NCBI GenBank assembly: GCA_965202965.1
Contig: CBDBCQ010000001.1
Location: 6,626-70,625, forward strand
Source: Dehalococcoidia bacterium
GTDB taxonomy: Bacteria > Chloroflexota > Dehalococcoidia > Lucifugimonadales > UBA1123
DNA: 64,000 nucleotides
Direction: 5' to 3'
Under the pieces are notes generated by a model. That model was not told the DNA's origin. It saw only the letters and a list, made by a program, of their open reading frames with translations, and ran no database searches. The position numbers and the translations under genes were made by a program. Shown piece by piece: positions 10,721 through 63,546 of this stretch (positions are counted from its first letter, which is position 1; every line of letters starts with the position of its first letter).

Positions 10721-10891
10721 AGCAAGGTCTGTCCCTTCGGCTAAGTTACTGGACAGGCCGCTGCTCCGAGCAACAGCCAAATGGGGCGGCCGATTCTGAA
10801 CGAAATAGAGATCATCGGCAAGCTCCAGATTACATCGACGCGAAGATTTTAGCAAAGGTGGCAACAACCTGCTTTCAGAGCCTGCTCGCAC

Positions 10892-33009: not shown

Positions 33010-33705
33010 GGGAATTACAGAAGTAACAACCTTCTGTATTTACGCCGCGTCCAGCGCGGCGGCGGCGAAATTCCCGCCCGCCAGTGCCTTATGCAAGATG
33101 TTCCTAGCGGCATTTATATCCGCGTCTTCAGTCATCCCGCACTCGGCGCAGTCGTATCTCTTGCGTCGTCTGTGTTCAGCAGAAACCACTCCGCAGCCGG
33201 AGCACCTCTGCGATGTGAACTTCGGATCAACGGACACCAACTCCCTACCGGCCCATGCTGCCTTATAGTGGAGTTGATGGCGTATCAGTCCCCAGGTCTG
33301 TTCGCTTATGCTTCTGTTTAGCCCACTCTTTCGCCTCACATTTTTGCCAGGCTCCTCAATCGTGCCTTTAGCCGAGGCAGTCATATAGCCTATCTTCAAA
33401 TCTTCGATGGCGACCAAGCCGAATCGTCTAACAATGTCCGTAGTGACGCGATGGCACTCGTTGCGGTTCCTGACGCGCTCTCTGTCCTGGGCGTTGGCCA
33501 GAACCGCACGCCGCTGCTTCCAGCGACGACTTCCTTTCAGACAACGAGACATCCTCTGCTGAGCACGCTAATTGGGCTTGCGCCTTCTACCGAGACGCTC
33601 GCCAGTCGAAAGAGCTACTCTGTCCAAAACACCCATATCCAACCCAACAGCATTGTTGTTGGGTTGCAACGGCTCGTGCTCAACCGCGTACGCGAGATTC
33701 ACCGG
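33010..33705 (-). pseudogene. tnpB: tnpB pseudogene of the 54590..55774 family, 5'-truncated by insertion of the next tnpB element
   Basis: ORF 33040..33552 matches the C-terminal half of 54590..55774 (RWKQRRAVLANAQDRERVRNRNECH...IEDLK...CSGCG...CAECG..EDADINAARNIL...AAALDAA). Upstream, 33553-33705 still encodes VGLDMGVLDRVALSTGERLGRRRKPN with an in-frame stop. The GGGAATTACA terminus is retained at 33010-33019. Confidence 0.8.
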
Positions 33706-41532: not shown

Positions 41533-42777
41533 TCAGTCCGCAGCGGGATGAACAGTCGCCAACGGTCCAGTTCGCCCTTCATCCCCGATGGTTTCGTCCG
41601 TCGTCAGACGAACCAGAGCCTTCGAGTCCGAGCGCGTTACATCGGGGCCAACCGCCCCTAGCGCAAACTTTTGCAGGTTGCGAGCCGCGTTCAGGTTCCG
41701 GTCATGAGTCACCCCACAGGCGCCACAGCGCCAGGCGGGCTCCCTGCGAAGCCCGGCATTCACCACTCCACAGGAAGAGCACGTCTTGCTGGAGGGATAG
41801 AAGACAGGAGCCTGTACCAGTTCCGTCCCGTACCACCTGCACTTGTACTCCACCTTCCTGAGAAGTCCGCCAATGGCCGCATCCCTGATGGCCTGTGCCT
41901 GCCATCTAAGCTTGCCCATCCCGGACACGTTCAGTGTCTCTATCCCGAGCACCCGGTACTTCCGCGCCACTGCCCGCGATAGCTGGTGATGAGCGTTGTC
42001 CCTCAGTCCTGTGATACGACGCTGGCAGCCGTCTATCCTTCGCTGTGCTTCATGCCAGCCACGGGAACCGGACTTCCTGCGAGACTGCGCCCTCTGCCAG
42101 CGTCGCAGCTTCCGCAGGCTGCGTCTCAGTGCCCTTGGGTTCTCGTGCTCCGTTCCGTCAGACTCCACAGCAAGCGGACTGATGCCCACATCGAGACCGC
42201 CACACGGTTGAGGCTTCCGCTCCTGTACCTTGTCCGGCACCCTCAGGCTCAGACTCGCGTACCACCGTCCATTGGTCTTCTTGACCGTCACCTTCGATAC
42301 CACCGCTCCGTCCGGCAGCCCGTGCCTCAGCCTCACGGACCCGATGTACGGCAACCGCAGCCTGCGATGCCCATCGTAGCTGATAGTCTGCACCCCGGAG
42401 GCTGCCAGGAACGACCCCGAGCCTGTCGCGCGTCTCGCGTGGAACCCGGGTCTGCCGGACTCCCCGCTGAACCACCTGTCCATCGCGGCACGGAAGTTGT
42501 CACGCGCTCCCTCCGCCACGAACTTGCTCACCGAGGCGATGAAGGAGAACTCGTCGGTGTCGTGCTTCAGCCTGTTCAGTTCCCTAGCCAGTTCATAACC
42601 GGACGGCCAGCGGCCCAGCTGCGCTCGGGCCATACGGCTGGTCGCAACGTGGATGTTGTAGACAGCCCTGCTTATCCCTATGCACCTGCCGGCATACTGC
42701 TCCTGACGGATAGTCAGATGTATCGGCACCACCAGTCCCGACCTAATCACCCGCCGCCTCCAATGCGCGCCTGGCAC
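41533..42777 (-). CDS. tnpB: TnpB of the IS607 unit, catalytic motifs intact
   Basis: GGLDVGISP, LGIETLNVSGM, CSSCG...CGACG and THDRNLNAARNL. Confidence 0.9.
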   Translation of the reverse strand: MPGAHWRRRVIRSGLVVPIHLTIRQEQYAGRCIGISRAVYNIHVATSRMARAQLGRWPSGYELARELNRLKHDTDEFSFIASVSKFVAEGARDNFRAAMDRWFSGESGRPGFHARRATGSGSFLAASGVQTISYDGHRRLRLPYIGSVRLRHGLPDGAVVSKVTVKKTNGRWYASLSLRVPDKVQERKPQPCGGLDVGISPLAVESDGTEHENPRALRRSLRKLRRWQRAQSRRKSGSRGWHEAQRRIDGCQRRITGLRDNAHHQLSRAVARKYRVLGIETLNVSGMGKLRWQAQAIRDAAIGGLLRKVEYKCRWYGTELVQAPVFYPSSKTCSSCGVVNAGLRREPAWRCGACGVTHDRNLNAARNLQKFALGAVGPDVTRSDSKALVRLTTDETIGDEGRTGPLATVHPAAD

Positions 42778-45319: not shown

Positions 45320-45795
45320 AATGTCGTGGAAGTTCAGCGGGCTTATGTTAAAACGACGGATCGCCTTGATGCAACATTCTGAGATATTCTCTTGCATCCG
45401 ACACAGAGGCGTCGCAATGATCAGGCAGCGAGGTAAGGGATATGCGGTCTGTATCAAGGGACTGCCGACGCTGAGGTTTAGAAGGGGCACAGAGCTTCCG
45501 CTGTCCGGCGACCTTCAAGGTATTGCCATAGAGTCCGGTGCGGCAGGCGGTTGTGGGTGAATCTGATATATCAAGTGGAGAGCAAGCCGTTGAGTCGGAG
45601 CGACCTGACGGTAGGACTGGACATGGGCATCTCCGACCGCATTAGCACTCTCGACGGGGGAGAGCGTGGGCAGGCGAGATAAGGCCAACTCAAAGATCGC
45701 GCGCGCGCAGAAGCGCTTGTCATGGTGCAGGAAAGACAGTCGCAGGTGGCGTGAGCGCCGGTCGATACTGTCGAACGCACAGGACAGGGAGGTTT
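45320..45795 (+). pseudogene. tnpB: Decayed tnpB fragment (N-terminal/middle part, frameshifted, 3'-truncated)
   Basis: AMIRQRGKGYAVCIKGLPTLRFRRG..., then in another frame VGLDMGISDRISTLDGGERG... and ...KDSRRWRERRSILSNAQDRE. These match the 54590..55774 family. Confidence 0.75.
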
Positions 45796-46514: not shown

Positions 46515-46690
46515 TCTATTCTACCAAGTTCAAGGTGTTGATCACGGCATTGACGTCAGCATCCAGCGACAATCCACACTGAGCGCAGTCGAACCGCTCG
46601 CCACTGCGAGTGTCCTGACTCCGTATCCCGCTGTCAGAACAGGTCTGGCCCGTATGCTGAGGAGCAACGGCTACCGACTCCCAACCGGCC
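46515..46690 (-). pseudogene. tnpB: Decayed tnpB C-terminal fragment
   Basis: The minus strand encodes VAVAPQHTGQTCSDSGIRSQDTRSGERFDCAQCGLSLDADVNAVINTL, compared with VVVDPAYTSQTCSGCG...YSCALCGLEMDADVNASSNIL. The first CxxC is degenerate. Confidence 0.75.
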
Positions 46691-47131: not shown

Positions 47132-50100
47132 GTGTGGAGGGCGATGAATTCGCACAATCATGCCATGACGACCGCAACAAGGCTTACCGCCTGTGCTCTC
47201 CTCATCGCCGTCGCGCTCGCGATTGCCCTCCTGGCCACCTCCCGTGCCTATGCTCAGCAGAGCTGCACGAAAGTCACGATGATTTACGCGGAGGCTCATA
47301 ACACGCTCTACATGATCGATGGCGGCGGCAATCGCCTCGTTGACGTCCAGAGCGGCAATAGCCTGAGCAATCGTCAAGTCAATTCCTCCATCGTGGTGTG
47401 GGGAACCCCGTCCAGAATCGGGATTGAGATTTCACACACGGGCGCGACCAAATATAACTATAGAAGCAATGTTATTCAGTCCGGTGACAGGGGCTACGAA
47501 GATTACATAGACGGCGACTTCAACGATGCCGTGATTCTTCTCACATCCGTTATCTGCCCGGCAGGGGTAACCCCGCCTCGCCGGGTGTCCACGCCGACTC
47601 GTCCGCGGACAGCGCAGGCGAATACGGCACCCAGCATATCGTCGGTCAGTGCGGACAACATCGCCAAGACGACCGCGCGTGCCGTCGTGGAAATAGCCGA
47701 CCACGATGGCACCGAGCTGACCGTCAACTTGCGCTACCAGGAGAAGGCGGAGGCGCAGGACTGGCCGAATGCGCATACCGACACGGCGACCAGCAGCGCA
47801 AGTCCGGCTACGAAAAGCCTGGATAACTTGACGCCTGGTACGGAGTACGTGCTGCAGGCGTCGCTAGACGCCGCCTTCCCTGCCGAGGGAACGAAGGAGC
47901 ACACATTCACGACGGAGCGTCCGCCCAGCATATCGTCGGTCAGTGCGGACAACATCGCCAAGACAACCGCGCGGGCTGTCGTGGAAATAGCCGACCACGA
48001 TGGCACCGAGCTGACTGTCAACTTGCGCTACCAGGAGAAGGCGGAGGCGCAGGACTGGCCGAATGCGCATACCGACACGGCGACCAGCAGCGCAAGTCCG
48101 GCTACGAAAAGCCTGGATAACTTGACGCCTGGTACGGAGTATGTGCTGCAGGCGTCGCTAGACGCCGCCTTCCCTGCCGAGGGAACGAAGGAACATACAT
48201 TCACGACGGAGCGTCCGCCCAGCATATCGTCGGTCAGTGCGGACAACATCGCCAAGACGACCGCGCGTGCCGTCGTGGAAATAGCCGACCACGATGGCAC
48301 CGAGCTGACCGTCAACTTGCGCTACCAGGAGAAGGCGGAGGCGCAGGACTGGCCGAATGCGCATACCGACACGGCGACCAGCAGCGCAAGTCCGGCTACG
48401 AAAAGCCTGGATAACTTGACGCCTGGTACGGAGTACGTGCTGCAGGCGTCGCTAGACGCCGCCTTCCCTGCCGAGGGAACGAAGGAGCACACATTCACGA
48501 CGGAGCGTCCGCCCAGCATATCGTCGGTCAGTGCGGACAACATCGCCAAGACAACCGCGCGGGCTGTCGTGGAAATAGCCGACCACGATGGCACCGAGCT
48601 GACTGTCAACTTGCGCTACCAGGAGAAGGCGGAGGCGCAGGACTGGCCGAATGCGCATACCGACACGGCGACCAGCAGCGCAAGTCCGGCTACGAAAAGC
48701 CTGGATAACTTGACGCCTGGTACGGAGTACGTGCTGCAGGCGTCGCTAGACGCCGCCTTCCCTGCCGAGGGAACGAAGGAGCACACATTCACGACGGAGC
48801 GTCCACCCAGCATATCGTCGGTCAGTGTCGGTGACGTAGGGCAGACTTCAGCGGTCGCAACCGTGAGCATCGCCGACTCAGACGGCAGCACACAGACAGT
48901 CAAGCTGCAATATCGCGAGAAAGATGCGACTCCCGTAGAAGAGTGGAGTACGCGTCCCGTCCAGTCTGAGAGCAGCACAGGCGCGACTGCGCGCATCGAC
49001 CTCAGTGGATTAACCGCGAACACCAGGTACGAAGTACAAGCCTGGCTTGGGAGCGACGAAACTGTCAAGGTGGCAGTCGAGTTCAGAACTCTGCCGCCTG
49101 ATCCCAGCCTCTCCGGTGTCAGCATAGGCAGCATCACACAGACTTCAGCGGTCGCCACCGTGAGCATCGCCGACTCAGACGGCAGCACACAGACAGTCAA
49201 GCTGCAATATCGCGAGAAAGATGCGACTCCCGTAGAAGAGTGGAGTACGCGTCCCGTCCAGTCTGAGAGCAGCACAGGCGCTACTGCGCGCATCGACCTC
49301 AGTGGATTAACCGCGAACACCAGGTATGAAGTACAAGCCTGGCTTGGGAGCGACGAAACTGTCAAGGTGACAGTCGAGTTCAGAACTCTGCCTGATCCCA
49401 GCCTATCCGGTGTCAGCATAGGCAGCATCACACAGACTTCAGCGGTCGCAACCGTGAGCATCACCGACGCGGGCTCGGCGCAAAAGACGGTGTACATGTC
49501 TTTCCGCAAGTTCGGCGATACCGAGTGGAGCGAAGCGGGTCCGAAGACGACCAGGGGCGCGAATGTCGCCTACGACCTGACGGCGCTGGAGCCGGAAACG
49601 ACTTACGGGGTAAAGGCGCACCTCAAGGCTGACCTCCATACTTTCAAGCATGCGATATTCACCACGCTGTCGCCCGAACCGGAGCCGGAGCCCAGCGTAT
49701 CCGGTATCAGCTTTGGCAGTATCACCCAGACCACGGCAGTCGCTACCGTGAACATCGCCGACGCGGGCTCGGCGCAGAAGACGGTACGCCTGCGCTACCG
49801 CGTTAACGGCGCTACAACCTGGACTACGGAGAGTTCCCAGAACACCGGAGGCGCAAGCAAGGCATTCTCATTGGACGGGTTGACGGCGGGGACAACCTAT
49901 GAGGTTCAGGCGTGGCTGGATCTTACTATGCCACCTGCGGGCACAACCACCTACACGTTTGACACATTGGTGAACCCTCCGAGCATATCTGATCTCAGTT
50001 TCGAGGACATAGAGCAGACTTCCGCGACTGTAATGGTGGAAATCTCAGACGCCGGCACCGGGGAGAAAGAGGTCTTCCTGAGGTTCAGAATTCAGGGTGA

Positions 50101-53008
50101 GGACGACTGGACGACCCTCCCCAACCCGGCGACCACCAGCGGGGATGACGCTTCCATAGACCTTACAGGACTTCAGGAGCAGACGACCTACGAGGTGGCG
50201 GTTGCGCTCTCGGAAGACTTCAGCGGCACGGTCAAGAAATCGTTCACCACGCTGCCTCCGCCGAGCCTGTCAGGCGTGGGCATAGGCAGTATCACACAGA
50301 CATCTGCCGTCGCAACCGTGAGTATTGCCAACGCCGGTTCCGGCCAGAAGACGGCGCTCCTGCAGCACCGAGAATTCGGAGAGAGCGAATGGATCGAGTC
50401 CGAGAGCAAGACGACCAGTGGCGCGAGCGTCACGTTCAATCTCACCGGACTCGATCCCGGGACGAACTATGAGGTGAAGGCATATCTAAGCGCCGACCCT
50501 GACACGCCCAGGTATGTGGTATTCGTCACGCTGTCGCCAGGGGCCAGCGTGGATGATAGTGTCAGCGTGGCTGGTGTCAGCGTTGGAAGTATCACCCAGA
50601 CGTCGGCGGTCGCGACCGTGAGCGTCGCCCACCCGGGCACTGCACAGAATACCGTGCATCTGCGCTACCGCAAGTTCGGCGAAAGCGAATGGGTTTCGAA
50701 TGCGACCAAGACTGCTGCGGGCGCGAGCGTGCCTTTCGGCCTTTCGGAGTTGGCTCCGAAAACGAAGTACGAGGTGGAGGCTTCACTCAGCAGCGACTTC
50801 TCAGATGCCGAGTCGGCTACATTCACGACGCTGGCGCTTGACCCGCTCATATCGGGTGTGAGAGTGGATAACATAGCGCAGACCACGGCCACCGCGATAG
50901 TGACGATAGCAAACGCTGATGACGCTTCGCAGACCGTCCACACGCGCTATCGCGCGACAACGCCGCAGGGCGAGTGGAGCGCCGCTCAGACGACAACCAG
51001 CATCACCTCCACAGCCGAAATCAGTCTGTCCGGCCTCACTGCCGACACGGAGTACGAAGTTGAGGTGTCTCTGACAGACGACTTTGGCGTGTCACGGACA
51101 GCCACCTTCAGGACCCTGTCGTCCGGAACCCCGCTGCCCGATCCTGTGGTATCGAAGATCAGCGTCAACAATATCGCGCAGACGACGGCCACAGCATCGA
51201 TCGGCATCGCAAACGCAGACGGTGAGGAGCAGACTGTGCGCCTGCGCTATCGCACGGCCACGCACGGAGCCAATTGGGGCGAAGCACAGACGGCTACGAG
51301 CAGGACCGGCAGTGCGAGCATCGACCTGACAGGTCTCGCTCAAGGTGCAAGGTACGAAGTTCAGGCTTCACTGGACGATTCGTTCCCCACGAATCGCACA
51401 AAGTACACCGTCTTCACGACGCTGAGGTATCCGAGCATAGCCTCCGTTGAGGCAAGGAACGTCGGCAGAAATGCAGCGACCATAAGAGCCACCATAGCGG
51501 ACTCGCACGGTGAGGCGCAGACGGTCTATATCCGGCATCGCCGGACGAGCAGCAGCGCCTGGAGAACCACGCACCAGAAAGACTCCGTGAATGACGTTGC
51601 GAGTCTGAGCCTCGGTGGCTTGTCCTCGGGAACCGAATACATCGCTGAGGCGTCTCTCGACGACTCCTTCCCGTCGGATGAGACGAAATCCGTTACGTTC
51701 ACGACCAAGGATACGGCCGAGGATGACACTACCGAGGATCCGCCCAAAGACACCTCCAAGAAACGCGGGGATGGCGACGACGGAGCTTCAGGCAGGAGTG
51801 GCACTGTTCAGGCAGCTCAAGCAGCGAACGTACCATTGCTGGGCTTCTCGCCATTGATGCTCACGTTCACCGCGGTCGAGGGCGGTGACAACCCATCGCC
51901 TCAAACCTTCCAGGTCTGGAGCAGGTCGTCAGGGGCGATGACCTTCACCCTGTCGCACTCCGAAGAGTGGCTCTCTCAGGAGCCGCTGACGGGCAGGTCC
52001 AACGGGCCTGATAATCCCGTGACCATCACCGCATCGGTTGACTCGTCAGGCCTGGCGTCGGGTCAATACGTGGACGTCATCAACATAGACGTGAGTTCAT
52101 CGAGCGAGGCTTCCGGGCAGATCAATGTGACGCTGGACGTGTTGCCTCCGGATTATGTAAGGCAGTTTGTCTCACGGGCCGAAGGCGGGGTTGTGATGCT
52201 GCCGGACGGCACCGTGAAGATAGTGGTTCCGCCGCTTGCGCCACCAAAGGACGTGGACATCGAGCTGATGAAGGTGGACCCGCAGGCGCATGGCGCGCCC
52301 CCGGAAGAGCAGGAACGCGTGGTTGTGGCGATAGACTCGAACACATACTCGCCGGGCGGAGACATGCCGGAGGACGTCGCCTACTCTCCCAATGTGGAGC
52401 TGTGGATATTGCTGACTGACGGTGAATCTATCGCCTGCGCTGAAGGCAGAGCCAAGGTGTATGAGGTTGTGTCCGGGGACTGGAGACTCGTTGAACATCG
52501 CTGCGAGACGGACGAGTCGGGCAACGTGTGGATTGTGAGTGAAATCGATAGGCTTGGCGCATTTGCGCTGGTGATAGATGACTCTCCCGTGCCACCAGCA
52601 CCCGTAGCAGCGGCGGTTGTGCCTGCAGCGACGCCAACGCCTGCGGCGACGCCAATCACAGTTCTCACTGTGCCTCAGGGGACTGCGGTGCAGCGCACTT
52701 CACTGCCCGCGCTGGCTCCGACACCGACACCGACTCAGGTGCCAACTCCGCTGCCGATTCCCAGCAGGAAGACGGTGGCCGCGTCTGTATCATTCGTACC
52801 CACGCCAACGCCGACCGCGGTAGCAGCACCCACGCAGAGTTCAATGCCAGTGCTGCAGGCATCGACTGTCGCGCAAAGTTCCGGTGGATTTGATTGGATG
52901 ATACTTGCCGCTCTCGGAGTGTTTCTTCTTGGCGGCGCATTTATTGTCTTGTTCCTCGTTTACCGTAGGAGGCGGCGCTGGCGGCGCTATGTCGGACAAT
53001 ATCAGTAG
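47132..53008 (+). CDS. Giant membrane-anchored surface protein: signal peptide, DUF4114-like N domain, 14 tandem FN3-like modules, BACON-like domain, Pro/Thr linker, C-terminal TM anchor
   Basis: Signal ...AIALLATSRAYAQQ and YEDYIDGDFNDAVILL. There are 14 modules of 98-105 aa (pattern S.S.VS...I.QT.A.A.V.I......QTV.LRYR....W......T......L.GL...T.YEV.A.L). The BACON-like block is LLGFSPLMLTFTAVEGGDNPSPQTFQVWS. It ends WMILAALGVFLLGGAFIVLFLVYRRRRRWRRYVGQYQ. The probable start is the ATG at 47144 (GGAGGG upstream). Confidence 0.85.
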   Translation: MWRAMNSHNHAMTTATRLTACALLIAVALAIALLATSRAYAQQSCTKVTMIYAEAHNTLYMIDGGGNRLVDVQSGNSLSNRQVNSSIVVWGTPSRIGIEISHTGATKYNYRSNVIQSGDRGYEDYIDGDFNDAVILLTSVICPAGVTPPRRVSTPTRPRTAQANTAPSISSVSADNIAKTTARAVVEIADHDGTELTVNLRYQEKAEAQDWPNAHTDTATSSASPATKSLDNLTPGTEYVLQASLDAAFPAEGTKEHTFTTERPPSISSVSADNIAKTTARAVVEIADHDGTELTVNLRYQEKAEAQDWPNAHTDTATSSASPATKSLDNLTPGTEYVLQASLDAAFPAEGTKEHTFTTERPPSISSVSADNIAKTTARAVVEIADHDGTELTVNLRYQEKAEAQDWPNAHTDTATSSASPATKSLDNLTPGTEYVLQASLDAAFPAEGTKEHTFTTERPPSISSVSADNIAKTTARAVVEIADHDGTELTVNLRYQEKAEAQDWPNAHTDTATSSASPATKSLDNLTPGTEYVLQASLDAAFPAEGTKEHTFTTERPPSISSVSVGDVGQTSAVATVSIADSDGSTQTVKLQYREKDATPVEEWSTRPVQSESSTGATARIDLSGLTANTRYEVQAWLGSDETVKVAVEFRTLPPDPSLSGVSIGSITQTSAVATVSIADSDGSTQTVKLQYREKDATPVEEWSTRPVQSESSTGATARIDLSGLTANTRYEVQAWLGSDETVKVTVEFRTLPDPSLSGVSIGSITQTSAVATVSITDAGSAQKTVYMSFRKFGDTEWSEAGPKTTRGANVAYDLTALEPETTYGVKAHLKADLHTFKHAIFTTLSPEPEPEPSVSGISFGSITQTTAVATVNIADAGSAQKTVRLRYRVNGATTWTTESSQNTGGASKAFSLDGLTAGTTYEVQAWLDLTMPPAGTTTYTFDTLVNPPSISDLSFEDIEQTSATVMVEISDAGTGEKEVFLRFRIQGEDDWTTLPNPATTSGDDASIDLTGLQEQTTYEVAVALSEDFSGTVKKSFTTLPPPSLSGVGIGSITQTSAVATVSIANAGSGQKTALLQHREFGESEWIESESKTTSGASVTFNLTGLDPGTNYEVKAYLSADPDTPRYVVFVTLSPGASVDDSVSVAGVSVGSITQTSAVATVSVAHPGTAQNTVHLRYRKFGESEWVSNATKTAAGASVPFGLSELAPKTKYEVEASLSSDFSDAESATFTTLALDPLISGVRVDNIAQTTATAIVTIANADDASQTVHTRYRATTPQGEWSAAQTTTSITSTAEISLSGLTADTEYEVEVSLTDDFGVSRTATFRTLSSGTPLPDPVVSKISVNNIAQTTATASIGIANADGEEQTVRLRYRTATHGANWGEAQTATSRTGSASIDLTGLAQGARYEVQASLDDSFPTNRTKYTVFTTLRYPSIASVEARNVGRNAATIRATIADSHGEAQTVYIRHRRTSSSAWRTTHQKDSVNDVASLSLGGLSSGTEYIAEASLDDSFPSDETKSVTFTTKDTAEDDTTEDPPKDTSKKRGDGDDGASGRSGTVQAAQAANVPLLGFSPLMLTFTAVEGGDNPSPQTFQVWSRSSGAMTFTLSHSEEWLSQEPLTGRSNGPDNPVTITASVDSSGLASGQYVDVINIDVSSSSEASGQINVTLDVLPPDYVRQFVSRAEGGVVMLPDGTVKIVVPPLAPPKDVDIELMKVDPQAHGAPPEEQERVVVAIDSNTYSPGGDMPEDVAYSPNVELWILLTDGESIACAEGRAKVYEVVSGDWRLVEHRCETDESGNVWIVSEIDRLGAFALVIDDSPVPPAPVAAAVVPAATPTPAATPITVLTVPQGTAVQRTSLPALAPTPTPTQVPTPLPIPSRKTVAASVSFVPTPTPTAVAAPTQSSMPVLQASTVAQSSGGFDWMILAALGVFLLGGAFIVLFLVYRRRRRWRRYVGQYQ
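47630..48805 (+). repeat. Four near-identical 294-bp tandem repeats (coding, FN3-like modules 1-4)
   Basis: CCCAGCATATCGTCGGTCAGTGCGGAC recurs at 47630, 47924, 48218 and 48512. The antisense shadow ORFs in the track are also spaced exactly 294 nt apart. Confidence 0.95.
48806..49400 (+). repeat. Two near-identical ~297-bp tandem repeats (modules 5-6)
   Basis: GTGAGCATCGCCGACTCAGACGGCAGCACACAGACAGTCAAGCTGCAATATCGCGAG occurs at 48863 and 49160. Confidence 0.9.
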
Positions 53009-54266: not shown

Positions 54267-54517
54267 CTCTGCATAATATAGAGCAAATGCGACTGCACAG
54301 GAATATATTTTTGCACAGGGAGATCAATGATGGGTGAAACGAAAGGCGAGCGGCGAGAGCGGAAGCGCAGGAAGAAGCGCTACGGGCACAAGGTGAGCGG
54401 GCGCAGTATGCAGACGCTGCAGCGGATTATTGTGGAGAGGTCCGAGGGGGAGCGGGCGCGGGAGGGGTTGGCAGCAGTTGACTGATAAGTAGTTTATAGA
54501 TGACAAGAGTTGTTGTT

Positions 54518-55815
54518 GGGAATTACATACTTTACTAGACGCCCCACCATTGACCGACATATGTTCTGCATAAATGGTAAAATAGATGCATGCCATCGAT
54601 TCACAGAACACAGCAGCACCGAGCATATACGAGCGCATCCGGATACGACCGGTTGGACGATGTAATGACCAACTGCGCACGCCTGTACAACGCCGCACTG
54701 GAAGAGTGGCGCACGGCATTCCGGCAGGCAGGCGTCGGCCTCACGATGTACGACCAGATGAAAGAACTGACAGGCGTTCGCCAGGACGATCCCGACTTCT
54801 GGGGAGCGCTGTCCCTGCAGGTAGGGCGTGGAGTCCTGCGCCGACTGGAGCGCGCGCGTCAGTCGTTCTTCAGGCGTGTCAAGGCAGGAGATAAGCCAGG
54901 CTATCCCCGGTTCAAGCCAAGCCGAAAGTGGCACACGATAGAGCTTGCCGAGGTAAGCGGAGCGATGGTGAGGAAGAGAGGTGAGTGCTACACCGTCAGG
55001 GTGAAGGGCCTGCCCGTTCTCCGGCTGCGTAAAGGTGTTGAGCTGGGGCCTGCTGAGAACCTGAAGGCTCTGAGCATCACAAGACGCGGACGCCGGCTGT
55101 TCGTCAACCTGACCTATGTGGAAGAGCGTCAGCCGTTGCATTCGAGCAGCGCTGCGGTCGGGATAGACCTGGGCGTGTCAGACCGTCTTGCCCTGTCCAC
55201 AGGGGAGCGTATCGGCAGGAGGCGAAAGCCCAACGGGAAGCTCAGGCGGGCGCAGCAGAGGCTGTCACGCTGCACAAAGGGCAGTCGCAGATGGAAGAGA
55301 CGCAGAGCGATACTGTCCAATCAGCAGCATCGGGAGCGTGTTCGCAACCGTAACGCCTGCCACGAGATGACGACGGAGTTGGTCAGGCGCTTCGGGCTGA
55401 TTGCGATAGAGGACCTGAAAGTCAGGAATATGTCGGCGTCGGCGAAGGGCACTCTGGAGTGTCCTGGCAGGAATGTCGCTCAGAAGTCAGGTCTCAACAG
55501 GAGCATACTTGAGCAGTCCTGGGGGATGATACGGCAGCAGTTGACCTACAAGGCAGGGTGCGCTGGTAGGGAACTGGTTGTCGTTGACCCCGCGTACACG
55601 AGTCAGACCTGTTCTGGTTGTGGCAACGTCAGCAGGGACGCTCGTTCTGGAAAGAGATATAGTTGCGCCTTATGCGGTCTGGAGATGGACGCGGATGTGA
55701 ACGCGTCGTCGAACATTCTGCATAGGGCTCTGGCGGCTGGGAATATCGCCGCCGCCGCGCTTGACGCGGCATAACTGCTTCTCGCTTGACCTCTCAAGTA
55801 GAGTATGTAATTCCC
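54518..55815 (+). mobile_element. 1298-bp TnpB-only element with 14-bp perfect TIRs and flanking 8-bp direct repeats
   Basis: GGGAATTACATACT at 54518-54531 and AGTATGTAATTCCC at 55802-55815. TTGTTGTT lies immediately outside both ends (54510-54517 and 55816-55823). Confidence 0.8.
54590..55774 (+). CDS. tnpB: TnpB (IS605 OrfB family), catalytic motifs intact
   Basis: VGIDLGVSD, IAIEDLKVRNM, CSGCG...CALCG and MDADVNASSNIL. Confidence 0.9.
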   Translation: MPSIHRTQQHRAYTSASGYDRLDDVMTNCARLYNAALEEWRTAFRQAGVGLTMYDQMKELTGVRQDDPDFWGALSLQVGRGVLRRLERARQSFFRRVKAGDKPGYPRFKPSRKWHTIELAEVSGAMVRKRGECYTVRVKGLPVLRLRKGVELGPAENLKALSITRRGRRLFVNLTYVEERQPLHSSSAAVGIDLGVSDRLALSTGERIGRRRKPNGKLRRAQQRLSRCTKGSRRWKRRRAILSNQQHRERVRNRNACHEMTTELVRRFGLIAIEDLKVRNMSASAKGTLECPGRNVAQKSGLNRSILEQSWGMIRQQLTYKAGCAGRELVVVDPAYTSQTCSGCGNVSRDARSGKRYSCALCGLEMDADVNASSNILHRALAAGNIAAAALDAA

Positions 55816-55970
55816 TTGTTGTTTGTATCAGGCGCAGCAATGACCTTGGTTTGGTACAATAGTTCCATGCCAGGCAAAGACAACCTGACTTTCACCTACA
55901 AGACTCGCATCAGCGGCAACTGTTGCTAACCCCGAATCCTCATTGGATTGGCCTGCTGGTAGTCTCCTTG

Positions 55971-56024: not shown

Positions 56025-56267
56025 ATGCTACTGAAAGTAACCGCAAAGCGACAGGTCACATTCCCTGCTCGCGTCCTGGATTCGCTGGGCGTCAGGCAGG
56101 GAGACCGGATCGAGCTGATAGAGGGTCCCGACGGATACATACTGCGACCAAGACGCATAGACTACTCACGCCTGGGCACGCTCAGGGACAAGATTCCCGA
56201 AGGACATCCGACCTTTGACATCAGGAAGTTCAGGGAGAAGCCCTATGACCCAACCCTACGGGATTGA
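56025..56267 (+). CDS. vapB: AbrB/SpoVT-fold antitoxin
   Basis: MLLKVTAKRQVTFPARVLDSLGVRQGDRIELIEGPDGYILRP. Confidence 0.85.
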   Translation: MLLKVTAKRQVTFPARVLDSLGVRQGDRIELIEGPDGYILRPRRIDYSRLGTLRDKIPEGHPTFDIRKFREKPYDPTLRD

Positions 56268-56640
56268 TACGTCCGTCCTCGTCAGGCTGGTTACGGCAGA
56301 GCCGGAACGCGACTTTCAGCACTGCGTTGACGAGCTTCGCGTCCTGATCGAGCAAGACGCGGAGACATTCGCCTCGAACCAGGTCATCGGCGAGGCCTAC
56401 ATCGTGCTTCAGCAGCACTACGATATATCGTCGGATGATGCCCGCTCCGCGCTAGTCGATGTTCTGACAAGCGGAATGGTAGCCCCGATGAACGGGCAGA
56501 CGGTCATTTCGGCGCTGGAAGAGTCCGGGGGCCCAGGCGTGTTCGACCGGCTGATTGCCGACGGCTACACGCATGCGGGCATGGAGACGCTGACACTTGA
56601 CAGGCAGATGGCACGGCTTTCAGGAGTCAGCAGGCTATGA
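56245..56640 (+). CDS. vapC: PIN-domain toxin VapC
   Basis: MTQPYGIDTSVLVRLVTAEPE... A start at 56245 is preferred over the track's 56215. It overlaps the end of the antitoxin gene. Confidence 0.8.
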   Translation: MTQPYGIDTSVLVRLVTAEPERDFQHCVDELRVLIEQDAETFASNQVIGEAYIVLQQHYDISSDDARSALVDVLTSGMVAPMNGQTVISALEESGGPGVFDRLIADGYTHAGMETLTLDRQMARLSGVSRL

Positions 56641-57543: not shown

Positions 57544-60500
57544 CTAACTGAAGTAGAGGTCTATGACAGTGCTTACCTCGGCTAAGGTGAGTTGCCCGTT
57601 GAAGTAGTCATCGATGGCCAAGCTGACCTCAGAGAGGTCGATTTGTCCGGATTCATCCGCATCGTACCTGTCAAGCAGCTCATCGGCTGTCTGCCCGGAA
57701 TCCGAGCAGCTTGGGCCGGTGTCAGCATGGTAGCGGCTTGAAATACTGTTGAGCCAGGCTTCAAAAGCTCCGTCATCCGGCACGCAGAGTCCCGCATTCC
57801 CAGAGAAGGTAAACAATTCAAGCGCTGTGAGATTTGTGAGGCTGTGGGGTATCGTGCCCGTCAATTCATTGTCCGACAAGGCCAACCTCTCAAGGTTGGC
57901 GAGATTACCCAACTCTAGCGGTATCCCACCCGTCAGCTGGTTGTCATTAAGCCATAGTCCTCTCAGGTTAGCGAGCTTGCCCAGATCCGGCGGGATATTT
58001 CCTGCTAGCTGGTTCCCGCTAATCAACAGTTCCCTCAGACTGGACAGCTTGCCAAGCCCTGGCGGTATCTCGCCTTTAAGTTGGTTGTCGAGGAGATACA
58101 GTCCCTCCAGGTTGGTGAGACCACCTAGCCAGGCGGGTATCTTGCCGGTGAACTGGTTGCCATCAAGGTGGAGCCTTCGCAGATTGACCTTGTTCTCAAG
58201 CCATGCAGGGATGTCGCCGTTCGGAGTGCTCAGGTCATTATCGCCGCCGAGGTCCAGCACCTCCAGGTTAGCAAGATTGCCCAGCTCGGGCGGTATTTCA
58301 CCGCTGAGTCGGATTCCGTCGCCGAGCCACAACAGCCTCAGATTCGAGAGATTGCCCAGTTCGGACGGTATTTTGCCGGTGATTTCCGTGTTGCCGCCAA
58401 GATGCAGGCTCGCCAGACTGGACAGTTTACCCAACTGAGGCGGGATACTACCCTCCAGTTGGTTGAAGCCAAGCCACAACACTCGCATGTTTGTGAAGTC
58501 TCCCATCCATGCAGGAATTTTCCCTGTAAGTCGGTTGCCCTGGAGAGACAACTCTTCTAATTCGGTGAGATTGCCCAATTCCTCGGGTATCTCCCCGGTC
58601 AACGAATTTTCCCGTAGGTCCAATACTCGTATGCTGTGCAGGTCGCCCAGTTTCGACGGGATGCTGCCACTCAGACCGCTATCAGGGAGTGTCAGTTGCG
58701 TTACTTGCTGCTCGGAATCCACCTCGACGCCCGTCCAATCTCTGAGAGGAAGGTCTGCGTCCCAGTTCAGCTGCGCATCGCCATTGCCTATCAGGGCGTC
58801 CCTGATGCCGAGAAGAAGTTGACAGTCGTGAAGGCACTCCACGGGCACGGGCGGCCCGTCGCAGTCGGGCAAGCCGAGACGCTGAAGGTCGTTGTTCGGC
58901 ACATCGTGCAGGGCTTCAGGTATGCAGCCGGTGAAATCATTGCCAGCAAGCCACAGATATTCCAGCTTTGTGAGGTTGACCAATGAGTACGGTATCTGGC
59001 CTGTCAGTCGGTTTCTGAAGAGAGACAGTTCCCGGAGGTCTGTGAGATTGCCCAGCTCAGTCGGTATCTCACCGGTGAGTTGGTTATCAAATATGGTCAG
59101 ATATTTGAGATCAGAGAGGTTGCCAAGTTCAGGCGGTATCGGCCCACTCAATCGGTTGCCCCAGAGGAGCAGCACTTTAAGCTTGGTGAGGCTGCCCAGT
59201 TCCGACGGGATAGAACCGTTGAGGTCCATGTCATCCTTCAGGGTTATTTCCCATACGCGGTTGTTGTTGATATCAACTCTCTGCCAACTGTCCATAGGCA
59301 GATGTTCACTCCAGTTCAGTGGCTCATCGCCGCGCAGGGCATCCCTGGACGCCAGAAGCGCCTCGCAGTCGGCGACTATTCCAGAGCCTGCGTGTCGTGA
59401 AACTGCGGCGCTGTTGGGACACACGGGAGCGCGCACACTTACGGTGACCGTCATGGTGTCGGTATCGCCCTGGGCATCCGTGGCGGTTAGCGTGTAGCTC
59501 GTCGGACCGGCGGCGGTGGATGTCGCCGAAGTCCCTATCCGTGCCGGCGGACCGGGGTTGAAGGTCATGCCATTGCTTGGTACAGGAGATATGGAGTATG
59601 TCAGCGACCCGTTGCCATACTCCGCCTCTGGCAGGAAGTGGGCACCTGCCACACCTGCCGTGAAGGTGTACTCGATGCTGTTGTCCGCGAAAACCGGCGC
59701 ATCGTCGTCGAGAATGGTCAGCGTAACGCTTCTGGGTCCCCGAACCTCCTGCGGGTTGCTCGCCGTGCCGGACACTGTCACCCTCTTGCGGGCTTGCGTG
59801 AACACATCGTCGTTTGTCGCAATAATCGCAATAGACGCATCGCTCGCTGCCTGGCCCGCCGGGATGATCAGGGTCGGGGCATCGTCGTCGCCGTACCATT
59901 CTACTAGGACAGCCTCATCCAGCGCTGCCGGTATAGTCAGCTCGGTCGCAGCGCTCGATATGTTGTCCAGCATCGCGGTTACGAAAGTTCGATTTCTGGG
60001 AGAGACATCCCGGTCATCCTCCCCTTCGATGACCTCTGCGGGCGACAGATGCAGCGTTGCGACCGGGGTCGTCTCGTCATCGGCGACTATCAGCTCGACC
60101 GGGTCTGGCGCATCCACGCCGCTCGTGTTTGTCGCTGTCGCCGAGACCGTAACGCTCACATCGCCGGTTTGCTCGCCATTGTCAATGCCGGTGAGCGTTA
60201 CGACACCCGTGCTTGTCGTCCGGCCTGCCGGAATGGTCAGAGTCCTGTTCGCACTCAGAGCGACGGCAGCAGGATGCGAGGCCGACACCGTTACCGTAGT
60301 GTCGGCGCTCGATGGTCTGTTCAGTGACGCAGCTACCGTGCTGCTCCCTCCGTTTTCCACCACCCAGTACGGTGCCAGCGTCAGACTCGCTTTAGGTGTG
60401 GAAGTCGAGCTTTGGCGAAAATTCGCCACCACTTGACGGTTGGCGTTGAGGGTTCTCGCGGCGTCGGCAGGTCCGTCCACACCTGTAGAGGGATGGTTGA

Positions 60501-61755
60501 CCGGAACGCCCAGGGGATCGCCGTTGTAGGTCAGGTCGGGATTCGAGTAGTACAGAATCCATTGGCAATAGAAATCTCTTAAGTCGTTTTCTTCTGCATA
60601 ATCCCCACACTGATACGGGTAAGACATGATGGTGCGCCAGCGTGCGGACTCAGGGGCGCCCGGGCGGAACATTCGCTGGTTCACATAGCCGAAGTTTGAG
60701 TCTCTTCCTACGTCTGACTCTACATACCTGTCGTGGCGCAGGCCCATGTTGTGTCCAAGCTCGTGGGCGAAGACCAAACCTCCACCCCCATCAACCGTAA
60801 GACCAAACGCACTGTCCCGAAATGTCCCATCGTCGTATTGGATGAGAAGCTGGGCTACACCGCCCACATTGTCGCTTCTGCCGACCAGCAGGTGAACGAG
60901 GTCTGCCGCGTACAGGTCCCGCAGCTCGTGAATGTAGTCCATATATCCGTCCGATGGGTCTGCGAGCCTTCTAAGGTCAATGTAGGAGTTGCCGTCCTCG
61001 ATATAGTCCGTCTCCTGTCTCAGCACCAGCCTTATCCGATGTGTTACTCCACTGTTCGCAAATGCCTGGTTGATCTCTGCGACGAACAGGTCGATCAGCG
61101 CCTCGGCGCCTGCTCTGCCTCCCGCTTCATGCTTGACGGGAGGCGTGTACAGCACCATCACGTCTATCTCCGAGCCGTCGTCTCGCTGCGCGCTGACAGA
61201 TTGCGGGCGTGCAGGCGGCGGGCTTTGCGGCTCGCCCGGTGGCAGCAACGAGGACTCGTCAATCTGCCGGATGATGTACACGCCGTTACCGGCCGTGCGG
61301 ATGGTATAGACAGCCCGGGGGGTGCGAACCGTGCCGGCCACGACGCTGCCGTTCACGACCATTGTCATGGTTCCCAGTTCCACGCCGTCAAGCCCGCCCC
61401 AGAACGCATAGCCCGATGCGGTCGGCTCCACATGCTCGATTCTGCCTGTGAATGCGGCGTCTTCAAACAGGTTGAGCGCGACCGTCTGAGGCGCAAGGCG
61501 TCTCACTTCGTCAATACCCAGGGGTCTTGACACTGAATCCAGCGACGGGTCGAGTTGCCGGAAGTCGATCCCCACGAAGCGGCTTGCCAGTGTCTCAACA
61601 CCATGACTGGGCGGTGGGACTCCCTCGATTTCAGAGAATATGCCATCCGCATCAGACTCGCCGGTCTGCGCGCTGACGAGACCGGGGTCCGCAAGCGTGG
61701 TGAAGAGCAGCACCGTAGCTAAAATAGCTGCGAGAAGGGTTAGCGCATTACGCAT
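57544..61755 (-). CDS. Secreted metzincin (reprolysin/M12B-like) metalloprotease fused to Calx-beta-like domains and two plant-type LRR blocks, with a C-terminal EF-hand/dockerin-like tail; paralog of 5168..9307
   Basis: Signal MRNALTLLAAILATVLLFTTLADPGLVSAQTG. Zinc motif HELGHNMGLRHD. LRR caps are CEALLASRDALRGDEPLNWS and CQLLLGIRDALIGNGDAQLNW. More than 20 LRRs match L.G.IP.ELGNL..L..L.L. The tail is LLDRYDADESGQIDLSEVSLAIDDYFNGQLTLAEVSTVIDLYFS. Confidence 0.85.
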   Translation of the reverse strand: MRNALTLLAAILATVLLFTTLADPGLVSAQTGESDADGIFSEIEGVPPPSHGVETLASRFVGIDFRQLDPSLDSVSRPLGIDEVRRLAPQTVALNLFEDAAFTGRIEHVEPTASGYAFWGGLDGVELGTMTMVVNGSVVAGTVRTPRAVYTIRTAGNGVYIIRQIDESSLLPPGEPQSPPPARPQSVSAQRDDGSEIDVMVLYTPPVKHEAGGRAGAEALIDLFVAEINQAFANSGVTHRIRLVLRQETDYIEDGNSYIDLRRLADPSDGYMDYIHELRDLYAADLVHLLVGRSDNVGGVAQLLIQYDDGTFRDSAFGLTVDGGGGLVFAHELGHNMGLRHDRYVESDVGRDSNFGYVNQRMFRPGAPESARWRTIMSYPYQCGDYAEENDLRDFYCQWILYYSNPDLTYNGDPLGVPVNHPSTGVDGPADAARTLNANRQVVANFRQSSTSTPKASLTLAPYWVVENGGSSTVAASLNRPSSADTTVTVSASHPAAVALSANRTLTIPAGRTTSTGVVTLTGIDNGEQTGDVSVTVSATATNTSGVDAPDPVELIVADDETTPVATLHLSPAEVIEGEDDRDVSPRNRTFVTAMLDNISSAATELTIPAALDEAVLVEWYGDDDAPTLIIPAGQAASDASIAIIATNDDVFTQARKRVTVSGTASNPQEVRGPRSVTLTILDDDAPVFADNSIEYTFTAGVAGAHFLPEAEYGNGSLTYSISPVPSNGMTFNPGPPARIGTSATSTAAGPTSYTLTATDAQGDTDTMTVTVSVRAPVCPNSAAVSRHAGSGIVADCEALLASRDALRGDEPLNWSEHLPMDSWQRVDINNNRVWEITLKDDMDLNGSIPSELGSLTKLKVLLLWGNRLSGPIPPELGNLSDLKYLTIFDNQLTGEIPTELGNLTDLRELSLFRNRLTGQIPYSLVNLTKLEYLWLAGNDFTGCIPEALHDVPNNDLQRLGLPDCDGPPVPVECLHDCQLLLGIRDALIGNGDAQLNWDADLPLRDWTGVEVDSEQQVTQLTLPDSGLSGSIPSKLGDLHSIRVLDLRENSLTGEIPEELGNLTELEELSLQGNRLTGKIPAWMGDFTNMRVLWLGFNQLEGSIPPQLGKLSSLASLHLGGNTEITGKIPSELGNLSNLRLLWLGDGIRLSGEIPPELGNLANLEVLDLGGDNDLSTPNGDIPAWLENKVNLRRLHLDGNQFTGKIPAWLGGLTNLEGLYLLDNQLKGEIPPGLGKLSSLRELLISGNQLAGNIPPDLGKLANLRGLWLNDNQLTGGIPLELGNLANLERLALSDNELTGTIPHSLTNLTALELFTFSGNAGLCVPDDGAFEAWLNSISSRYHADTGPSCSDSGQTADELLDRYDADESGQIDLSEVSLAIDDYFNGQLTLAEVSTVIDLYFS

Positions 61756-61891: not shown

Positions 61892-63546
61892 GAGAATTAC
61901 ATCGGACTGTTGAAAAAGCCTGAGTTGAAGGCGGACATGTATGCGGCGTAGAGTGGCACGGACATCCGGCAATTAGGAGCTAAGCGATGCTCGATCCATT
62001 AGACCGCCACAGCAGAGACTCCACACTGTTCCAGTTCACGACCAAGCGTCTCAGGGACTTCATCGACCCCAATCACCTTCTCATCCAGATAGACGAGCAG
62101 TTCGACTTCCAGAAGCTCGTCGAACCGCTTGAGGAATACTACTGTCGGGACAATGGCAGACCTGCCATTCACCCGGAAGTGCTCGTGAGAGCGCTGCTGA
62201 TCTCGTCGCTGTACAACGTCAGTTCGTTCCGTCGCCTGTGCGCGGCAATATCGGAGAATCTTGCCTTTCGCTGGTTCTGCTTCCTTACGATAGACGACGA
62301 GGTATTCCACCATTCGACCATAAGCTACTTCATCGAGCGCGTGGGGAACGAGGGCTTCGGTCAGATATTCCAACGCTTCAACGAGGAACTGCTGCGGCTG
62401 GGCCTTCTGTCACGGCAGGTGTACGCCGACTCCAGCCTGGTGGGAGCGAACGTCAATAGCAGCAGGCTGTCACCGAGTGGTATGAGCGTGGAGGAGTTCA
62501 AGGAGAAGGCGGTCGCGGAGAATGGGCTGTTCGTGCTGCGGGAGCGGGAATTAGATGAGGGCGGCAAGGAGCAGGAGAGCGTTAGTTACTACCAAGATGC
62601 ACAGGGAAGACTACCCCTGAATCCTGTGGACACGGATGCCAGATGGGGCACTAGGCGCAGGCATGAGACGCAGTGGAAGCTGCATTACCAGGAGAACGTG
62701 ATAGTGGAAAGAGGTGGCTTCATAGTGGCACGCACCGCTACGCATGCCAGTGTGGGCGAGTGGAAGGCGTTGGACGGGATGCTGAAACAGCTGCCGGTCA
62801 AGCCGGAGACATTCGCCGCTGACGCGGGATACAGAGGGGGACACGTGAGGAAGCGTCTGGACGACATGGGCATAGTCGCCTACATCCCCTTACATCCGAC
62901 TCAGCTGAGGAACATGGTAGCCAGGGGAGGCTTCGACTATCGAGGAGATCACCTCGTATGTCCGGAGGGAAAGGTTCTGCGCAGGAGTGCGCTCCTGAGT
63001 CGGGATCGGACGCATCAATATGTCGCACGCCAGCACGACTGCCAGAGATGCCCAATAAAGACTGAGTGTCTGCCACCGGGGCAGGTGCGCCGATATGTGG
63101 TGCGGAGCATCTATCACTCCCTGCATCTTGAGGCGAAGGAGCGTAACGAAAAGGAAGCGTTCAAGACGGAGATGCTCAGGAGGAAAACGATAGCTGAGGG
63201 AGTGTTCGCGTCACAGGATCGGTTGGGATGGGCCAGGAGCAGGTTGAGAGGGTTGTGGAAAGTGGACTGCGAAGGCTACATATCGTCGCTGGCACATAAT
63301 ATGAAGAAGGCTGTGCATCGGCTGGGCGACTATACCGGACCTCCAGTGCCGGCGACTACACCAGAGCCGGCCGCTGCGTAATCAAGATAGAGCAGGGAAC
63401 GACAGGATTATCATGGAAGATCTGATGAGCCAGTCGTTGAAAGTGGCCGAAGGCCTACGCCAGTCAGACGTGTTGTGCGTCACGAGAGGTCACTGACGCC
63501 AGATAGGATCAAAACCCTGCTTTTTCAACAGTCCGATGTAATTCCC
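61892..63546 (+). mobile_element. IS1182/IS5-family insertion sequence with 26-28-bp TIRs
   Basis: GAATTACATCGGACTGTTGAAAAAGC at 61894-61919 and its exact reverse complement at 63519-63544. The match extends to 28 bp with one mismatch. No clear TSD was seen. Confidence 0.85.
61987..63381 (+). CDS. DDE transposase, IS5/IS1182 family (DUF772-type N terminus)
   Basis: LLIQIDEQFDFQKLVEPLEEYYCRDNGRPAIHPEVLVRALLISSLYNVSSFRRLCAAISENLAFRWFCFL, followed by the later ...FAADAGYRGG... region. The 464-aa length fits IS1182-type enzymes. Confidence 0.8.
   Translation: MLDPLDRHSRDSTLFQFTTKRLRDFIDPNHLLIQIDEQFDFQKLVEPLEEYYCRDNGRPAIHPEVLVRALLISSLYNVSSFRRLCAAISENLAFRWFCFLTIDDEVFHHSTISYFIERVGNEGFGQIFQRFNEELLRLGLLSRQVYADSSLVGANVNSSRLSPSGMSVEEFKEKAVAENGLFVLRERELDEGGKEQESVSYYQDAQGRLPLNPVDTDARWGTRRRHETQWKLHYQENVIVERGGFIVARTATHASVGEWKALDGMLKQLPVKPETFAADAGYRGGHVRKRLDDMGIVAYIPLHPTQLRNMVARGGFDYRGDHLVCPEGKVLRRSALLSRDRTHQYVARQHDCQRCPIKTECLPPGQVRRYVVRSIYHSLHLEAKERNEKEAFKTEMLRRKTIAEGVFASQDRLGWARSRLRGLWKVDCEGYISSLAHNMKKAVHRLGDYTGPPVPATTPEPAAA

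Follow-up and report, generated by a model that had tools for sequence, protein, structure and literature searches.

We analysed a 64,000-nt stretch of DNA from a Dehalococcoidia bacterium (the window; coordinates are window positions throughout), which carries at 54518-55815 a compact, transposon-like unit of 1298 bp whose sole gene is tnpB. The unit is closed by a perfect 14-bp terminal inverted repeat (TIR): GGGAATTACATACT at 54518-54531 and its exact reverse complement at 55802-55815. The octamer TTGTTGTT stands directly outside both ends, where a target-site duplication (TSD) would be expected. The tnpB-only unit, the 14-bp repeats and the duplicated octamer had been described in an earlier reading of the letters alone (the sequence-only reading), and all were re-read at those positions. 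With mismatches allowed, the inverted repeat reaches 22 nt at 91% identity (20/22), giving a 22-bp TIR of the type GGGAATTACATACTT..ACT. The features are listed in Table 1.

Table 1. Coordinates of the tnpB element, its truncated second copy and the IS1182-like element in the window.
Feature	Position	Strand	Remarks
Left copy of the 8-bp TSD, TTGTTGTT	54510-54517		direct reading; same length as in other family members
Left TIR, GGGAATTACATACTTTACTAGA, IS1595-type tip	54518-54539	+	18/22 consensus match, first 15 identical
Promoter-like site (weak evidence) within the left end, close upstream of tnpB	54554-54583	+	CCGACA, 18-nt spacer, TG-TAAAAT
tnpB, 394 aa	54590-55774	+	RuvC D193/E274/D369 and CxxC...CxxC zinc finger conserved
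Two small hairpins, tnpB 3' end and 3' untranslated region	55754-55770, 55784-55799 (span 55754-55799)	+	folding z = -1.8
Right TIR (reverse complement GGGAATTACATACTCTACTTGA)	55794-55815	-	
Right copy of the 8-bp TSD, TTGTTGTT	55816-55823		
Truncated second copy, same clade	33010-33702	-	right-end tip GGGAATTACAG at 33010 and C-terminal ~170-220 codons
11-bp stub GAGAATTACAT, outside the IS1182-like element	61892-61902	+	best read as left TIR tip of a destroyed third copy
IS1182-like insertion sequence, 1633 bp, own inverted repeat CGGACTGTTGAAAAAG at both ends	61903-63535	+	transposase 61987-63381
11-bp stub ATGTAATTCCC	63536-63546	-	best read as right TIR tip of the destroyed third copy

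The encoded protein matches the Pfam families OrfB_IS605 (PF01385) and Cas12f1-like_TNB (PF07282) and reaches 211 bits with the NCBIfam model guided_TnpB NF040570 (cutoff 100). In an alignment of 15 TnpB sequences D193, E274, D369 and the four zinc-finger cysteines were invariant. Between the tnpB stop codon at 55774 and the element's end at 55815 there are 41 bp. The element lacks a transposase gene; it is non-autonomous and so must be mobilised in trans.

With at most one mismatch, six copies of the TIR tip GGGAATTACAT are present in the window where 0.37 would be expected by chance, and none of 100 shuffled sequences reached six. The TIR finder gave the tnpB element a score of 16, compared with a usual best of 8-10 for 60 random 1.2-kb segments. 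The decayed copy of the same family that the sequence-only reading had placed at 33010 proved real: in addition to the tip it retains a TnpB C-terminal fragment (33040-33552, minus strand) with 69% amino acid identity to the intact protein. It is broken off beside an unrelated tnpB (33721-34998) that is only 27% identical.

The window contains at least four further tnpB genes that are full-length and belong to other clades, at 9349-10725, 30802-32067, 33721-34998 and 41533-42777. None of these four has a TIR with a GGGAAT tip, and none has comparable repeats except the unrelated gene at 9349-10722, which lies between the arms of a 21-nt inverted repeat, CTAAGGCGTGTTGACATTCAG (19/21), and shows no clear TSD. 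Remnants of tnpB were also seen near 45548-45775 and 46635-46690.

The abundance of classical solo tnpB genes in the window, the typical OrfB_IS605-type protein and the simple-repeat nature of TTGTTGTT would suit an ordinary solo tnpB of the IS200/IS605 (IS1341-type) or IS607 kind, in which the TIR and the TTGTTGTT flanks would be a coincidence or the mark of a low-complexity target. IS1341-type elements are likewise tnpB-only units of about 1.3 kb encoding the same protein family; they have subterminal hairpins and insert 3' of a 4-5-nt target, with neither TIR nor TSD. The window element, in contrast, has both TIR and TSD and lacks a left-end hairpin, so that it fails three of the defining features. 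Folding of its left end gave no hairpin above shuffled sequences on either strand (z = -0.1 and 0.0). The end architecture of IS200/IS605, whose presence inside the TIRs the sequence-only reading had held would speak against its proposal, is thus absent, and hairpins occur at the right end only. IS200/IS605 and IS607 elements are described as having no TIRs or TSDs (PMC13565253; PMC4810608). Since, moreover, the TIRs are conserved clade-wide at many unrelated sites and three other sites carry non-repetitive, perfect 8-bp TSDs (see below), an ordinary solo tnpB is barely credible here.

Terminal repeats and duplications across the TnpB clade

The window TnpB has 2666 homologues at E < 1e-20, and its genome matches come from SAR202 and other Dehalococcoidia metagenome-assembled genomes. 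Element ends were read in about 20 TnpB loci. Relatives at 92-44% identity, on SAR202/Dehalococcoidia contigs, have TIRs with GGGAAT tips in most lineages; in a subfamily at 63-68% identity GAGACG tips take their place (Table 2).

Table 2. Terminal and flanking repeats at related TnpB loci.
Locus	TnpB identity	TIR or tips	Flanking repeat
L003	88%	TIR as in the window	perfect 8-bp repeat CTAAATTC
L011/17/18/19	45%	GGGAATTACATAC / GGGAATTATATAC	perfect 8-bp repeat TTGAGTTT
L014	63%	perfect 25-bp TIR, GGGAATGATATACC...	none
L010	44%	GGGAATTACCCG...	none
L001, L002	90-92%	TIR slightly decayed	none
L004, L005 (subfamily)	68%	tips GAGACGATTTCA	6 or 7 bp
P0057 copies (subfamily)	66%	tips AGA(T/C)GATTTCA	about 10 bp

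Perfect 8/8 TSDs were found at four independent sites. Three surround tnpB elements (window, L003 and L011) and the fourth, AAGCCAAG, surrounds a 446-bp relative in L050. The four duplicated sequences are unrelated to each other, and CTAAATTC, TTGAGTTT and AAGCCAAG are non-repetitive. Because other independent family members carry perfect 8-bp duplications, TTGTTGTT is a genuine TSD; the low-complexity accident that the sequence-only reading had allowed for does not account for it. The combination of TIR and TSD is a property of this TnpB clade, and the DDE-type architecture claimed from the window copy is present. This supports the earlier general proposal of a non-autonomous unit, similar to a miniature inverted-repeat transposable element (MITE), that is moved in trans by a DDE enzyme. 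No DDE transposase was found in cis beside tnpB among about 30 loci of the clade that were checked, a tiny sample of the 2666 homologues. The plasmid collection was also searched and gave no DNA resembling the tnpB element.

One member of the subfamily, the P0057 TnpB, is present as an identical protein on 24 contigs, in several contexts. Its copies (L025-L034) were seen wedged between an IS607-type element (resolvase and tnpB) and other tnpB genes, and their left flanks, of three kinds, are paired variously with right flanks of two kinds. This mixing indicates frequent recombination among nested insertion sequences (ISs) in these genomes. As the P0057 copies sit in nested mosaics with recombinant flanks, their TSD calls are unreliable.

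IS1595-type kin of the ends

The viral_contigs set was scanned with an exact 19-mer, and then with three positions relaxed (GGGAATTACATNNTTNACT). The exact pattern matched the 446-bp element mentioned above (L050 5471-5916), which has a TIR of about 24 bp. The relaxed scan returned 87 stretches that reduced to 50 unique TIR pairs, bounding elements of 140-2800 bp. The 22-bp consensus of 98 ends of these elements is GGGAaTTAcATACTTgAcTCCC. Of 49 scorable TSDs, 33 were perfect (8/8) and 4 matched at 7/8; control octamers taken further outward never exceeded 5/8. When two other TIR variants from the clade, AGAYGATTTCAYAAAT and GGGAATGATATACNTAA, served as patterns, only unpaired, chance-like matches came back. 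These point to no partner for the subfamilies concerned, but as a control they show that the paired GGGAATTACATNNTTNACT matches are specific and not an artefact of a short pattern. The left TIR of the window element agrees with GGGAaTTAcATACTTgAcTCCC at positions 1-15 and 17-19, that is, at 18 of 22 positions.

Three full-size elements bounded by these TIRs encode a transposase of about 305 aa (L065 3916-5434, 1519 bp; L093 2356-4162, 1807 bp; L073 7572-10366, 2795 bp). With NF033547, "IS1595 family transposase" (cutoff 75), the L093 protein scored 197 bits and the L065 protein 208 bits; the L073 protein is about 60% identical to these two. Fragments of IS1595 transposase were found in L113, L067 and L096. 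Database relatives of these transposases carry PF12760 and PF12762.

As a lead, the subgroup may be the ISNwi1 group of the IS1595 family, whose ends are written ggnnatTAT. IS1595-family elements make 8-bp TSDs (PMC10045372), and ISs carrying passenger genes were first exemplified by this family (Siguier, Gagnevin and Chandler 2009, cited in PMC3129680). The window element resembles the IS1595 "transporter" ISs and MITEs in its tip, GGGAATTA(C/T)AT, and in its 8-bp TSD, and both settings show non-transposase passengers between the TIRs and many short, non-autonomous derivatives. It differs from the transporter ISs in that its passenger is an RNA-guided nuclease, no transposase is present, and three inner TIR positions are off consensus.

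These findings suggest that 54518-55815 is quite probably a non-autonomous element of the IS1595 (DDE) family with tnpB as its sole passenger, mobilised in trans. An IS1595 partner is favoured over the IS1182-like transposase of the window because the TIR matches the IS1595-type consensus at 18 of 22 positions and the TSD has the same length of 8 bp. An IS1595-family transposase, with an N-terminal zinc ribbon and a DDE domain, would be encoded elsewhere or on a visiting element and would bind the TIRs; it would cut out or copy the tnpB element and reinsert it with 8-bp staggered cuts. The allele before insertion would be expected to read ...GACAAGAG-TTGTTGTT-TGTATCAGG..., with a single TTGTTGTT. 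The window would then hold three copies: one intact, one truncated (33010-33702) and one reduced to 11-bp tips around the IS1182-like element.

Several observations weigh against this assignment. TIR positions 20-22 read AGA in the window and CCC in the consensus. Four of the nine distinct TnpB elements examined have no TSD (L001, L002, L010 and L014), and the flanking repeats of the 63-68% subfamily with GAGACGATTTCA tips measure 6, 7 and about 10 bp, not 8. The autonomous IS1595 elements with this TIR come from IMG/VR contigs, and their nearest named relative is proteobacterial, which places them in another host range. A tblastn search of the 64-kb window and of 49 SAR202-type loci (L001-L049) detected no IS1595 transposase. 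Nor did any element turn up that combines tnpB with such a transposase in cis, and no empty site was recovered for the tnpB insertion. A profile search for a SAR202 IS1595 transposase met a huge family whose top matches were not from SAR202.

The lack of a cognate transposase in the window and related loci could also be read in another way, namely that the element is a stranded fossil of IS1595 ancestry with no matching enzyme left, whose TnpB, if active, does something unrelated to transposition. Two of the three window copies are wrecked, and most TnpB clusters are immobile according to Altae-Tran et al. 2023 (PMC10691335); both points are in line with such a fossil. However, in the window copy the 14-bp TIR and the TSD are perfect and the open reading frame (ORF) is intact, which argues for a recent insertion. 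The P0057 protein is found unchanged in its several different contexts, and the portion of SAR202 genomes inspected is tiny. We therefore consider a stranded fossil unlikely. For retrieving both this lineage and its transposase, the tip GGGAATTA.ATACTT together with an 8-bp TSD can serve as a diagnostic.

The IS1595-type TIR family with 8-bp TSDs is large in viral-classified contigs (L052-L137, IMG/VR) and includes many MITEs of 300-600 bp. Some of its elements carry passengers, either ORFs that show DPPY-type DNA methyltransferase motifs or small genes of other kinds; examples of elements are L083 1353-2121, L060 4941-6710, L128 2020-3040 and L129 1609-2797. In L066 (330-1686) two 181-bp MITEs bracket about 1 kb, and the whole 1357 bp lies within a perfect 8-bp duplication, CAAAAATG; this unit resembles a compound transposon assembled from a pair of MITEs, and the same two-MITE structure was seen in L120 and L134.

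In L119 (517-1631) a promoter-like TTGACA/TAGGAT comes after a canonical IS1595-type TIR, GGGAATTACATACTTAACTCCC; next are a basic ORF of about 50 aa and a TnpB. This TnpB is only 29% identical to that of the window, and the stored locus stops short of the right end. It may represent a second, independent capture of tnpB by IS1595 frames.

The IS1182-like element and its arms

The possible mobiliser named by the sequence-only reading was the IS1182-like DDE transposase about 6 kb away, which would recognise the GGGAATTACAT tip and move the tnpB element in trans. Its protein has the DUF772 and DDE_Tnp_1_6 domains and scores 267 bits with NF033551, just below the cutoff of 270. Eleven identical nucleotides do stand at the outer edge of both structures, and arms of this kind are present on two IS copies at unrelated sites, one in the window and one in L023. 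To this may be added that the L023 copy borders on a 2.9-kb flank whose counterpart in L001 (96% identical) borders on the right end of a tnpB element, the junction falling at the same nucleotide.

IS1182-like relatives at 95, 90, 87, 85, 78 and 62% identity were compared and their ends lined up. The inner repeat CGG(A/C)CTGTTGAAAAAG is the IS1182-like end in all seven copies examined. Five relatives with 78-90% amino acid identity start exactly there (relatives at 90, 87, 85 and 78% were aligned at this point), and the end-to-end length is constant at 1631-1633 bp in every copy, those of the window and L023 included. In the three relatives whose flanks are intact, TSDs stand directly outside CGG and measure 5 bp instead of 8: CTGGA in L048, ATTAA in L024 and ATCGC in L046. 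The sequence GGGAATTACAT is found outside the window and L023 copies only, where the relatives have flank. The 11-nt identity noticed at the right end of the IS is real, and recurs at the left, at 61892-61902 as at 63536-63546, but it lies beyond the inverted repeat of the IS and does not belong to its own end. Inward of the shared 11 nt the two repeats are unrelated (ACTTTACTAGA versus CGGACTGTTGA), and neither of the arm-bearing IS copies is flanked by an 8-bp TSD.

The insertion habits of the relatives point to another origin of the arms. The copies L024 2918-4550, L048 1418-3050 and L049 1418-3050 correspond to window 61903-63535. Those in L024 and L048 occupy the same position of a homologous target, an IS21-like terminal repeat (TGTCAACGCCRAG...), and rve and IstB genes adjoin the copy in L024. 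In L049 the IS lies between two 18-bp IS21-like tips, the IS21-like interior being gone. The window and L023 copies resemble this arrangement, except that their tips are those of a tnpB-type TIR element. Insertions at the one IS21-like TIR position (TGTCAACGCCRAG|5 bp|...) were seen in both orientations, with 5-bp TSDs, and this IS1182-like lineage appears to home in on terminal repeats of other elements. Given the positions in L049, L024 and L048, arms made of another element's tips are the usual footprint of this IS. Among the 62% relatives, one transposase protein is found between different outer inverted repeats at two sites, and these outer repeats come from the target.

The left flank of the L023 copy is the right flank of the intact L001 tnpB element (96% identity over 2.9 kb; L001 5141-8032, L023 1-2916). 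This shared flank meets GGGAATTACAT at the same nucleotide in both loci and leads into the intact tnpB element in L001 and into the IS1182-like element in L023; the flanks on the opposite side do not match. The junction also fits an IS that has replaced the interior of a tnpB element.

From these comparisons the GGGAATTACAT arms in the window are best read as stubs of a third copy of the TIR element, invaded by the IS1182-like element. Two routes could have led there. The IS could have inserted with a 5-bp TSD at TIR positions 7-11 (TACAT) of both repeats, with a later deletion between the IS copies, or it could have replaced the repeats in one step, as for IS1272 (PMC5678879). Either route would yield exactly GGGAATTACAT-IS-ATGTAATTCCC. 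IS1182-family members such as IS1272 are known to target inverted repeats (PMC5678879); the window IS is like them in sitting between the inverted-repeat tips of another element and differs in that single insertions of its relatives leave clean 5-bp TSDs.

The TSD lengths, which the sequence-only reading had proposed to compare and a difference in which it took to count against its own candidate, are thus 5 bp for the IS1182-like element and 8 bp for the tnpB element. With its own CGG(A/C)CTGTTGAAAAAG ends, and with TIRs on the tnpB element that fit IS1595 better, the IS1182-like element is a very improbable mobiliser. A more general caution follows: termini common to two elements can be stubs of a destroyed target and not a sign of cross-mobilisation. 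An IS256-like (Transposase_mut) gene beside the L001 element was also considered as partner and rejected, having no GGGAAT-like TIR.

Known DDE-linked TnpBs, expression and neighbouring sequences

TnpB is the ancestor of Cas12. In the accepted view it puts the transposon back into the scar that remains after scarless excision of the Y1 or serine type, which depends on the target motif of the transposase doubling as target-adjacent motif (TAM). Six DDE-associated TnpB branches with inverted terminal repeats (DDE-1 to DDE-6) are described in Altae-Tran et al. 2023, PNAS (PMC10691335), which also reports solo TnpBs with ends like those of transposase-carrying elements and proposes their mobilisation in trans. 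DDE-linked solo TnpB is accordingly a known kind, and the description of the partnership as atypical for prokaryotes is out of date. The window element resembles these branches in having TnpB inside an inverted-terminal-repeat transposon, in a tnpB 3' end within 250 bp of the transposon end (41 bp here), and in being a solo tnpB whose ends match transposase-carrying elements; a point of difference is that none of the copies found here encodes a transposase in cis.

The only DDE partner named in the accessible text of PMC10691335 is IS630, and a 2026 review (PMC13565253) adds ISL2 and IS1031. IS1595 is not named as a TnpB partner in that accessible text or in the review, and full-text literature searches turned up nothing that links TnpB functionally to IS1595 or IS1182. 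The window locus is a further, well-documented example of this kind, probably with an IS1595-type partner.

In eukaryotes, Fanzor-carrying DDE transposons (Bao and Jurka 2013, PMC3627910) likewise hold a passenger of the TnpB family in a TIR/TSD transposon moved by an unrelated DDE transposase. The window case differs in being prokaryotic, with a small and canonical TnpB, and no evidence was found linking its clade to Fanzors. Merlin is a eukaryotic relative of the IS1595 family. The TnpB lineages that ride DDE elements can be regarded as a prokaryotic counterpart of the Fanzor-carrying eukaryotic transposons.

Expression signals in the window element were weak. The promoter-like site in its left end agrees with the consensus at 9 of 12 positions, and the one site found compares with 0.5 expected. 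The second 3' hairpin is kept in relatives, and in L011 both sides of the stem are changed (CTTGA/TCAAG to CTTGG/CCAAG). RNAalifold on twelve 3' ends produced a weak consensus fold only, and an Rfam scan of 53-64 kb detected neither an omega-RNA nor any other family. The 3' hairpins are candidates for the 3' part of an omega-RNA scaffold. TnpB, with its RuvC triad and zinc finger intact, would presumably be expressed from the left-end promoter; an omega-RNA could arise from the 3' end of the tnpB transcript, with the right flank, starting with the TSD, as guide.

The bases upstream of the four TSDs share no common motif and no TAM-like motif was seen, so that there is no sign of an insertion site providing a fixed TAM. 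Inspection by eye of the DNA around the TSDs for a palindromic target gave nothing convincing. TnpB on DDE transposons with TSDs at random sites provides a test of how general the TAM-dependent restoration model is. It is possible, and we suggest it only tentatively, that an old and large SAR202/Dehalococcoidia TnpB lineage, with hundreds to thousands of homologues at 44-92% identity, has long been housed in IS1595-type TIR/TSD transposons and not in IS200/IS605 or IS607. In that case, as IS1595 insertion duplicates an arbitrary octamer and no conserved motif was seen beside the left end, the TAM-defined logic of cutting the empty donor site could not apply unchanged, and either the relation between omega-RNA and TAM or the role of TnpB would have to differ.

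Some 60 bp that adjoin the insertion site on the left (54462-54521; GGTTGGCAGCAGTTGACTGATAAGTAGTTTATAGATGA.AAGAGTTGTTG) are found again at L001 1726-1791. The L001 copy adjoins a truncated tnpB of another family, and the DNA differs on both sides; the block may be the end of another repeat element. L001 was examined as an empty site for the window insertion and rejected, as it shares 56-62 bp of the left flank (54462-54521) and then continues into an unrelated tnpB fragment.

Directly downstream of the tnpB element, at 56025-56640, are genes for a MazE-like antitoxin (PF04014) and a PIN-domain toxin (PF01850), which share about 50 nt of overlap. Much of the window is taken up by six very long ORFs (1337-2108 aa), spread across 506-21518, 47132-53008 and 57544-61755.

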